Source: Candidatus Nealsonbacteria bacterium (GTDB lineage: Bacteria > Patescibacteriota > Minisyncoccia > Minisyncoccales > JANBVM01). Taken from it: a DNA stretch of 64,000 nt. The stretch lies in contig CP061210.1 in the NCBI GenBank assembly GCA_026016225.1, forward strand, positions 517,882-581,881, read 5' to 3'. Every line of letters begins with the position of its first letter. The first letter of the stretch is position 1. Below, piece after piece: positions 32,522 to 34,015 of this stretch. Made by a program: the position numbers and the translations under genes. Under the pieces are notes generated by a model, which saw only the letters and a program-made list of their open reading frames with translations, searched no databases and was not told the origin of the DNA.

Positions 32522-34015
32522 ATGTTAACGAAAAGGCAAAAACAAATTCTTAATTACATAGAAAAATTTATAAAGGCAAAAGATTATTCCCCTTCTCTAG
32601 AAGAGATAAAAAAGCATTTTAGACTAGCCTCGAGGTCAACTATCCATCAACATATTGAAACCCTGAAGAATAAAGGATATTTAGAAAACCAACCAAGAAT
32701 TATAGAGGTATCAAATAATAAAAATTCTGATTTAATAAAAATTCCAGTACTTGGTACTATCGCCGCAGGAGAACCAATTGAAGCAATAGAAAGTCCAGAA
32801 ACTATTAAAGTACAGAAAACTTTGCTCTCAAAATCTGGAGAGCACTACGCTTTACGAGTTCAAGGTAACAGTATGATAGATGAGGGAATATATAATGGAG
32901 ATGTTGTGATTCTAAGAAAACAGCCGGACGCTGAAAATGGAGAAACAGTGGTGGCTCTGATTAATGATAATGAAGTAACGCTAAAGAAAATTTATAAAGA
33001 AAAAAATGGATTTCGACTTCAACCTGCAAATCCAAACATTAAACCAATTTATACGAAAGAATTAATTATTCAAGGAAAAGTTATTAGTGTTATTAGAAAT
33101 TTTAACGAATTGAAAGAGAAAATAAAAACAGAAAAAAGCATAAAACCTAAAAAAAATAAAATTTCAAAAAAGAAAAACCTAAAGAAGCATTTAAATAAGG
33201 TGTTCTTTGGAGACATAATGGATCTTTTAAAAGATTTACCAGATGAAAGTGTTAATATGGTATTCGGAGATCCTGATTACAATGTTGGAATAAAATATGG
33301 AGATAAAACTTATACTAAAAACTTTAATGAATATATAAATTGGTATATCGAATTAACAAAAGAATCTATGAGAGTTCTAAAAAAGGATGGAAATTTGTTT
33401 ATGATGAACTACCCAAAACAGAATGCTCATTTAAGAACAAAATACTTAGATAATATATATCCTTTCATTAATGAGTATATATGGGTTTATAATACTAATA
33501 TAGGCCATAGTAAAAAACGCTTTACTACAGCACACAGAAGTATCCTACATGTTAGAAAATCAAAAAATAATAAATTTTATAAGGATAATATAGCTCTTCC
33601 TTATAAAAACCCGACAGATAGAAGAATTTTAGAAAATTTGAAAAATGGATCAAAAGGCAGAATGCCCTACTCTTGGATTTATTTTGATTGGTTTTATTTT
33701 GACCTTGTCAAAAATGTAAGTAAAGAAAAAACTTATCATGCCTGTCAAATACCTCAAAAACTCACAGAGATGTTAATAAAATCTTGTACGATACCGAACG
33801 ATATAGTTTTTATCTTGTTCGGAGGAAGTGGTTCTGAATTAGAGGTATGTAAAAAACTAAAAAGACAGTATATCTCTACAGAAATTGATGAAAAATATCA
33901 TGAAATGATTCTTGATAGATTACAAAATGGTTATATTAAGAAGAAATATAAATTACAGCTTAGAAATCCTATAAGACCGAAAGAGAGCTTATCGCTCTTT
34001 AATAAAGAGGAATAA
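32522..34015 (+). CDS. LexA-like repressor (wHTH, Ala-Gly cleavage site, S24 peptidase) fused to beta-class N6-adenine/N4-cytosine DNA methyltransferase
   Basis: 497 aa. Residues 1-195 form a full LexA-like repressor (detail in finding at 32522..34015). Lys-rich linker. C-terminal 270 aa carry MTase motif IV (VFGDPDYNV) ahead of HACQIPQKL...ILFGGSGSELEV...STEIDEKY (motif I), the permuted order of the N6_N4_Mtase family. Confidence 0.75.
   Translation: MLTKRQKQILNYIEKFIKAKDYSPSLEEIKKHFRLASRSTIHQHIETLKNKGYLENQPRIIEVSNNKNSDLIKIPVLGTIAAGEPIEAIESPETIKVQKTLLSKSGEHYALRVQGNSMIDEGIYNGDVVILRKQPDAENGETVVALINDNEVTLKKIYKEKNGFRLQPANPNIKPIYTKELIIQGKVISVIRNFNELKEKIKTEKSIKPKKNKISKKKNLKKHLNKVFFGDIMDLLKDLPDESVNMVFGDPDYNVGIKYGDKTYTKNFNEYINWYIELTKESMRVLKKDGNLFMMNYPKQNAHLRTKYLDNIYPFINEYIWVYNTNIGHSKKRFTTAHRSILHVRKSKNNKFYKDNIALPYKNPTDRRILENLKNGSKGRMPYSWIYFDWFYFDLVKNVSKEKTYHACQIPQKLTEMLIKSCTIPNDIVFILFGGSGSELEVCKKLKRQYISTEIDEKYHEMILDRLQNGYIKKKYKLQLRNPIRPKESLSLFNKEE

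Follow-up and report, generated by a model that had tools for sequence, protein, structure and literature searches.

A LexA repressor fused to a type II DNA methyltransferase in Candidatus Nealsonbacteria suggests a link between genome methylation and the DNA-damage response

The stretch of DNA analysed here (the window) comprises 64,000 nt of the genome of a Candidatus Nealsonbacteria bacterium (contig CP061210.1, positions 517,882 to 581,881) and contains a gene in which a complete, putatively cleavable LexA repressor is fused to a DNA methyltransferase of the type found in type II restriction-modification (R-M) systems (window positions 32522..34015, + strand; 497 amino acids [aa], ATG start). 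This arrangement suggests a coupling of genome methylation to the DNA-damage response. The explanation that we favour, and regard as fairly probable, is that the gene encodes an auto-repressed type II methylase, probably GATC-specific, which is joined to a cleavage-competent LexA and is de-repressed by DNA damage. Bacteria of the Candidate Phyla Radiation (CPR) account for much of bacterial diversity, have tiny genomes, and are protected from phages chiefly, as far as is known, by R-M systems; the fusion bears on how these systems avoid cutting the DNA of their own host. If the favoured explanation is true, a damage sensor within a methylase would represent a new mode of R-M regulation, i.e. 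a signal-responsive form of the autoregulation of methylases with helix-turn-helix (HTH) domains, and would add a new output to the SOS response. No one seems so far to have described LexA and DNA modification as functionally linked; no description of a LexA-methyltransferase fusion was found in the full-text literature searched, the coverage of which did not extend to the 2017 study of the SOS network in Patescibacteria (Sanchez-Osuna, Barbe, and Erill).

The fusion gene was defined by an open reading frame (ORF) call and by Pfam, NCBIfam, and PDB sequence matches, and all features within it lie on the + strand. The LexA half consists of a winged-HTH DNA-binding domain (aa 2-58, 32525..32695; PF01726 LexA_DNA_bind, E 8e-17) and a catalytic and dimerisation domain (aa 75-188, 32744..33085; PF00717 Peptidase_S24, E 3e-30). 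It is followed by a Lys-rich linker (aa 195-222, 33104..33187), whose length and sequence vary among 25 aligned members of the family, and by a beta-class N6_N4 type II R-M methyltransferase domain (aa 223-481, 33188..33964; PF01555 and PADLOC MTase_II), in which the Pfam N6_N4_Mtase match extends over aa 244-463 (E 7e-36, model positions 1-219 of 221). All three Pfam domains score far above their cutoffs. An earlier note on this DNA, made from the sequence alone, had described a complete LexA joined to a PF01555-type methyltransferase, and the domain searches bear out this description: in addition to the three Pfam matches, aa 2-194 match the NCBIfam lexA equivalog TIGR00498, scoring 192.6 bits where the cutoff is 110.95 and covering positions 4-202 of the 203 in the model. 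The best matches in a search of PDB sequences were Thermotoga maritima LexA (3k2z, E 4e-35) and M.MboIIA (1g60, E 6e-22), and the methyltransferase half matches the PADLOC MTase_II model PDLC03337 with 419 bits over 4-257 of its 264 positions. An identical protein carries the database annotation 'transcriptional repressor LexA'.

The motifs that had been quoted for the protein are all present where they were placed, namely TIAAGEP (aa 79-85), GNSM (aa 115-118), and TLKK (aa 153-156) in the LexA half and DPDY (motif IV; aa 250-253, 33269-33280) and FGGSGS (motif I; aa 433-438, 33818-33835) in the methyltransferase half. The predicted autocleavage site Ala82-Gly83 (32765..32770), the S24 catalytic serine Ser117 (32870-32872), and the S24 catalytic lysine Lys155 (32984-32986) line up with the corresponding residues of Escherichia coli and T. 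maritima LexA and are unchanged in all 25 aligned family members (62-100% identity), which indicates that the cleavage chemistry is under selection. Judged by every sequence criterion, the fusion protein is a bona fide LexA. With this architecture, self-cleavage would separate the enzyme from the DNA-binding domain, as the earlier note had anticipated.

In the methyltransferase half, motif IV precedes motif I, which is the beta-class order that had also been recognised before. FGGSG, which conforms to the S-adenosylmethionine (AdoMet)-binding motif I FxGxG, and FGDPDYNVG are likewise invariant in the 25-member alignment, so that the canonical motif IV, (D/S)PP(Y/F), is replaced by DPDY in every member. 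The possibility that DPDY denotes an inactive enzyme was rejected because the motif is family-wide and is present in standalone copies in R-M contexts; FGDPDYNV was one of the two patterns that recovered 198 genome loci, these standalone copies included. We therefore interpret DPDY as a variant specific to the family rather than a sign of decay, and apart from this motif the half appears from its sequence to be a bona fide PF01555 type II methylase.

An AlphaFold (AF2) model of the fusion protein (mean predicted local distance difference test [pLDDT] score 67.6; predicted TM-score 0.48) shows folded LexA and methyltransferase cores, with a pLDDT of ~80-86 in the winged HTH, no fixed orientation between the two halves, a disordered linker (aa 194-217, pLDDT <50), and a disordered C-terminal tail (33965..34012), the latter containing SLSLF (aa 489-493; LSLF at 33989-34000). 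An in-frame tandem duplication of 5 aa, WIYFD|WFYFD (15 nt; 33674..33703), interrupts the otherwise invariant PYSWFYFDLVKNVS block of the methyltransferase. It was detected by the family alignment in the window copy alone, being absent from the other 24 aligned members, and the model confidence is low at this position; the duplication may have arisen through a slip in the assembly, or may be a polymorphism or a change in function.

Among 5.8 billion proteins searched, more than 120 distinct 90%-identity clusters (62-100% identity), which derive from NCBI, JGI, ENA, and Logan assemblies, carry the same three Pfam domains in one chain. In a scan of one genome per species, the full fusion was found in 31 genomes (loci L001-L031), which are labelled Nealsonbacteria, Wolfebacteria, Giovannonibacteria, Staskawiczbacteria, Harrisonbacteria, Kerfeldbacteria, Magasanikbacteria, Woesebacteria, Paceibacterota, and Parcubacteria; the few other labels among them we take as mis-binned. 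All of the clusters stem from Patescibacteria/CPR-type genomes, in which the fusion is widespread. These data also dispose of the concern that a chimeric assembly or a frameshift has merged two neighbouring genes. A truly split version does exist in some genomes, e.g. at locus L084; however, it has its own stop codon, GGAGG ribosome-binding site, and ATG, all of which are missing in the window fusion, and the uninterrupted fusion is found in non-identical clusters from four independent data sources as well as in the 31 species-level genomes. We rejected such an artefact, the probability of which we consider negligible. Searches of viral contigs, 50,697 phage records, and 72,556 plasmid records yielded no fusion; a phage or plasmid origin was rejected on these grounds, and the coupling to phage induction that had been envisaged earlier receives no backing from them.

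The predicted operator of the fusion gene is a direct repeat, ATGTTCGG-tta-ATGTTCGG (32464..32482, + strand), with a period of 11, which contains GTTC-N7-GTTC and is the sole perfect copy within the 64 kb. The earlier note had placed the two repeats between a -35 and a -10 element; the two ATGTTCGG copies are real, but the pairing of the two hexamers does not stand, because the -35-like TTGACA (32451..32456, + strand) and TATAAT (32483..32488, + strand), both read from the sequence, are separated by 26 nt and thus do not form a canonical pair, nor was the pair reported by a sigma-70 promoter scan. TATAAT is the likely -10 element and abuts the second half-site, a juxtaposition that is also seen in most orthologous loci. 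The suggestion that the repeat is an operator gained support from phylogenetic footprinting: a direct repeat with at least seven of eight positions matching was found in 30 of 32 upstream regions (29 with period 11), compared with 21% of shuffles. The half-sites differ by lineage (TTCGG, TTTCGG, TTTCTA, CTACGG, TCGGG, TTCGC, or the reverse orientation), with both copies changing together, and the repeat usually fills a 16-17-nt spacer and overlaps the -35 element, e.g. TTGACTtcggtaaatcttcggcTATAAT in L010. The conserved period and the co-varying half-sites provide strong comparative evidence for a dimer-binding operator, which we take to be a LexA operator at the gene's own promoter.

Direct-repeat LexA boxes, such as the alphaproteobacterial GTTC-N7-GTTC, are established in other bacteria (PMC8565304), and the window operator literally matches that box. 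The same repeat architecture is found at the promoters of standalone lexA genes (L082 and L084), and the repeat can thus be regarded as the generic LexA box of the lineage. Four extra GTTC-N7-GTTC matches in the sequence were unconvincing as operators, since they lie inside ORFs or tRNA genes or beside a tRNA gene.

A second element upstream of the gene is a DnaA-box-like sequence, TTTTCCACA (32441..32449, + strand), which has one mismatch to TTATCCACA. In 24 of 32 loci, the 150 nt preceding the fusion gene contain a perfect TTATCCACA (0.2% of shuffles), and in 29 of 32, a copy with at most one mismatch (5% of shuffles). No perfect copy was found at the six standalone lexA promoters sampled, and only L087 has a one-mismatch copy. 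From its sequence, this element may tie the expression of the fusion to replication status. It occurs in either orientation and at varying distances from the predicted LexA operator. The same upstream sequence is found in the loci L025 ('Woesebacteria') and L026 ('Wolfebacteria'), indicating recent transfer or mis-binning, and in these two loci and L028, two opposite-facing operators surround a single -10 element, each being flanked by a DnaA-like box.

The scan of one genome per species also recovered the methyltransferase part alone (aa ~217-481) as a standalone gene of ~264 aa with 65-76% identity, in Chloroflexota, Planctomycetota, Bacteroidota, KSB1, Zixibacteria, and bins labelled as archaea. 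Sequence comparison thus places this half in a horizontally spread family of type II R-M methylases. A standalone member of the same family (69% identity), annotated as 'putative DNA methylase', is encoded by the Thermus jumbo phage phiLo (MH673673.1, 16833-17573). The C-terminal tails of 30 of 47 standalone methyltransferases (L032-L080) contain QLx[LFI][LFIP], e.g. QLTLLEE, QLTLFEE, QLSFLED, and QLALPV, compared with 1% of shuffled tails; this motif resembles the beta-clamp-binding consensus QL[SD]LF, and some of its carriers are binned as archaea. Among the fusion proteins, 10 of 29 tails have a relaxed form, xL[S/P][L/V]F, of which SLSLF is the version in the window.

GATC is the most depleted word in the window (74 observed vs 180 expected, with even depletion over all 8-kb bins), in the pooled fusion loci (310 vs 797; observed/expected 0.39), and in the pooled standalone-methyltransferase loci (422 vs 1511; 0.28), whereas it is present at nearly the expected frequency in a small control set of five loci (~36 kb) without a DPDY methyltransferase (173 vs 181; 0.96). 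Because GATC is scarce wherever the DPDY methyltransferase occurs, this site avoidance makes GATC the likely methylation target of the fusion enzyme. Other words that are under-represented in the window are CTAG and CTTA/TAAG. The position of GATC sites bears on a different role for the LexA half, namely that it tethers the methylase to LexA boxes for the methylation of sites by SOS promoters and that cleavage frees the enzyme for genome-wide methylation. The modelled flexible, disordered linker, with its lack of a fixed inter-domain geometry, would allow such action at a distance; however, no GATC is present in or next to the window operator, nor in the orthologous upstream regions examined, the 64 kb contain a single operator, and the same methyltransferase family functions as a standalone R-M enzyme. 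We therefore regard a targeting role as very improbable.

The association of LexA with DNA methyltransferases extends beyond the DPDY family. An exhaustive search of 1.84 billion representatives returned many LexA-only matches to proteins of 350-890 aa, and in 19 of the 20 long LexA proteins examined, LexA_DNA_bind and Peptidase_S24 are fused to a DNA methyltransferase of one of four classes, i.e. N6_N4 (beta), N6_Mtase/Eco57I/TaqI_C (gamma), MethyltransfD12 (alpha, Dam-like), and C5 DNA_methylase. When LexA domains are placed in a tree, the fused LexAs form one large clade in which the methyltransferase classes are interleaved, and the ordinary LexAs of ~200 aa lie outside it. Unfused operons were also found: in L084, lexA is separated by 11 nt with GGAGG from a separate DPDY-family methyltransferase gene, which is followed by a convergent 277-aa partner gene (of the 289-aa family described below), and in L087, lexA, vsr, and a C5 methylase gene are followed by a convergent 278-aa gene. 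Fusion with four methyltransferase classes, together with the unfused operons, constitutes 'Rosetta-stone' evidence that LexA and DNA modification are functionally linked. In a tree of DPDY methyltransferases, the fused copies, the split copy of L084, and one CPR standalone copy cluster separately from the clade formed by standalone copies of other phyla, and the partner types are interleaved among close relatives; these groupings suggest one ancient fusion for the DPDY family, followed by frequent exchange of partners.

These comparisons also bear on the view that the fusion protein is a housekeeping LexA with a passenger, i.e. that it is the only SOS repressor of the cell, to which a downstream R-M methylase became fused during genome streamlining, so that the fusion provides co-expression without any special mechanism and cleavage matters for the SOS regulon only. 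The generic nature of the operator and the existence of unfused operons are in line with it. So is the finding that the LexA half has diverged faster than the methyltransferase half (46-72% vs 67-82% identity to the window copy), as a resident gene would, and that the LexA clade nearest to the window copy is almost wholly fused, with few true standalone copies seen. On the other hand, chance compaction hardly accounts for four methyltransferase classes, and nothing else, in 19 of 20 cases, or for the retention of the fusion over many candidate phyla, and we consider the passenger view rather unlikely.

Every methyltransferase locus examined has a tightly linked partner gene, and the partners were classified into four families. 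In the window, the partner gene (o225; 216 aa, 33999..34649, - strand) is convergent with the fusion gene and overlaps it by 17 nt at its 3' end. It belongs to a family of ~210 aa, whose members directly follow the fusion gene in convergent orientation in 19 of 31 fusion loci; a convergent partner of ~289 aa is found in 11 other fusion loci and in some standalone loci. The two remaining families, one of ~190 aa (21 standalone loci) and one with DUF6996/DUF6997 (15 standalone loci), are encoded upstream of the methyltransferase. Distant homology links the 210-aa family to the 190-aa family (hhalign probability 89%, E 2e-6). The o225 family has 239 members, all annotated as hypothetical, and o225 had no match in Pfam, NCBIfam, PADLOC, or PDB sequences. 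In seven fusion loci, the partner gene is directly preceded by a gene for a small HTH_3 protein resembling controller (C) proteins, as is classic for the controllers of R-M systems. Given the tight linkage and these C-protein-like genes, the partner is most simply read as a restriction endonuclease, as presumed here from gene context. The earlier note had the anatomy of the fusion protein right and overlooked that its gene is the methylase gene of an R-M module within a defence island, a context that changes the functional reading.

In the explanation that we favour, the winged HTH of the fusion protein would bind the period-11 direct repeat, which overlaps the core promoter of its own gene, and the enzyme would thereby repress its own synthesis; a precedent is provided by methylases whose N-terminal HTH represses the promoter of their own gene (PMC3874152). 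After DNA damage, one source of which would be double-strand breaks introduced by the partner nuclease into under-methylated DNA, filaments of RecA on single-stranded DNA would trigger self-cleavage at Ala82-Gly83. Cleavage would detach the DNA-binding domain, the S24-methyltransferase portion would leave the operator, and the promoter would be de-repressed, leading to increased transcription. Methyltransferase output would then rise during repair DNA synthesis, and the newly synthesised DNA would be protected. Since unbalanced R-M activity is known to induce the SOS response (PMC3874152), the whole loop would act as a negative feedback against self-restriction.

Several points weigh against this explanation. 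Selection on the cleavage residues could stem wholly from a housekeeping SOS role unrelated to the methyltransferase. No second copy of the operator was found upstream of the partner gene, elsewhere in the 64 kb, or in the flanks of related loci, and a PDB fold comparison with the confident o225 model (pLDDT 83.5) yielded no relative and revealed no recognisable nuclease fold. The control set for GATC avoidance is small. In E. coli, cleaved LexA fragments are degraded, and if the S24-methyltransferase fragment were likewise degraded after cleavage, damage would lower, not raise, the amount of methylase.

The last point is the basis of a rival explanation, according to which the cleaved S24-methyltransferase is degraded by ClpXP or Lon, methylation lapses, and the stable nuclease kills the cell, the locus thus operating as an abortive-infection or post-segregational-killing switch tripped by phage or DNA damage. 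Cleavage would leave an N-terminal product with the end ...IAA, which resembles the ClpX-recognised end of cleaved E. coli LexA, and AbiV and a GajB-like gene place the locus in a defence island. It is also consistent with this explanation that R-M systems act as toxin-antitoxin pairs, in which unstable methylases strengthen killing (PMC3874152). However, cleavage would also de-repress the promoter and replenish the protein, routine DNA damage would become lethal, and a degradation signal on the C-terminal fragment cannot be shown from sequence; we judge damage-triggered loss of protection to be improbable.

A broader reading, which we offer only tentatively and to which we give less than even chances, concerns much of Patescibacteria. 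In these bacteria, the sole SOS repressor would be fused to, or in an operon with, whichever R-M methyltransferase the genome carries, and the SOS response would double as an autoimmunity sensor, in which self-restriction or replication damage cleaves the LexA-methylase protein, inducing repair genes and boosting methylation at the same time. The promoter would read replication status through the DnaA box, and the methyltransferase and its nuclease partner would be swapped horizontally within a fixed 'LexA slot'. The analysis also flags several hundred proteins annotated merely as 'LexA' or 'hypothetical', including a nuclease-candidate family without a known fold.

The genes on one side of the R-M module encode a PDC-M30A candidate (356 aa; 27447..28517, - strand), a GajB-like UvrD helicase (28582..30456, - strand), and an AbiV HEPN protein (30481..31008, - strand), which place the module in a defence island. 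Divergent from the fusion gene is a gene for a Hjc/PD-(D/E)XK-like nuclease (108 aa; 32070-32396, - strand), which shares the 125-nt intergenic region with it and might therefore also fall under the predicted LexA operator; the Hjc-like gene is not kept beside the fusion in other loci. On the other side, rarA (RarA/MgsA; 34694-35989, - strand) shares the strand of the partner gene and immediately precedes it at a distance of 17-44 nt, depending on the start chosen; this short gap indicates that the partner may be co-transcribed with rarA in the window. A gene for an ATP-cone-only protein (36724-37005, - strand) and that for the AdoMet synthetase MetK (37498-38517, - strand) follow within 4 kb. 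No recA or uvr (canonical SOS) genes were identified among the 20 window ORFs run through Pfam. At another locus (L085), a standalone LexA of 202 aa is encoded divergently from a CBASS-like gene set (SMODS, E2-CBASS-like), i.e. a LexA-type repressor is found beside a defence system.

Compared with known systems, the fusion protein shares with LexA (TIGR00498; PDB 1jhh from E. coli and 3k2z from T. maritima) the winged HTH, the Ala-Gly site, the Ser-Lys dyad, the S24 dimerisation domain, and a predicted operator at its own promoter, and differs in its 300-aa C-terminal extension, which consists of the linker and the DNA methyltransferase. In place of a palindromic LexA operator, it has an 11-bp-period direct repeat resembling the alphaproteobacterial GTTC-N7-GTTC box (PMC8565304).

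As in M.EcoRII, M.SsoII, M.Ecl18kI, and M.ScrFI (PMC3874152), an N-terminal DNA-binding domain is combined with an operator overlapping the methylase promoter. The regulatory domains of those enzymes are, however, short HTHs without a sensor function, whereas the fusion contains a complete LexA with an S24 peptidase. The known HTH methylases of the EcoRII/SsoII type are C5 methylases; the fusion enzyme, in contrast, is a beta-class amino-methyltransferase of PF01555, not PF00145. By sequence, it would thus work like the self-repressing methylases of this type without being a member of the group, as the regulatory domain is not homologous, and because the regulator is a self-cleaving LexA, we propose that repression could be relieved irreversibly by a RecA signal. 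In C-protein R-M systems (e.g. PvuII, BamHI, and Esp1396I), an HTH regulator likewise times modification relative to restriction, and C-like HTH_3 genes are present in the seven fusion loci mentioned above; the window lacks such a gene, since the position upstream of the partner is occupied by rarA. Unlike the free-standing C proteins, the regulator of the fusion is joined to the methylase and is proposed to respond to DNA damage.

A further parallel is restriction alleviation in the type I system EcoKI, in which ClpXP degrades HsdR after DNA damage. The fusion would similarly ease restriction of the cell's own DNA during repair, but in a type II system and through an SOS-driven rise of the methylase instead of proteolysis of the nuclease. 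Finally, the fusion enzyme has in common with M.MboIIA (1g60), M.RsrI, CcrM, and DpnA/M2.DpnII the PF01555 fold, the position of motif IV before motif I, and the FxGxG AdoMet motif, and is set apart from these beta-class enzymes by the family-wide DPDY in place of (D/S)PP(Y/F), by the fused LexA, and by a probable GATC specificity that is deduced from site avoidance.

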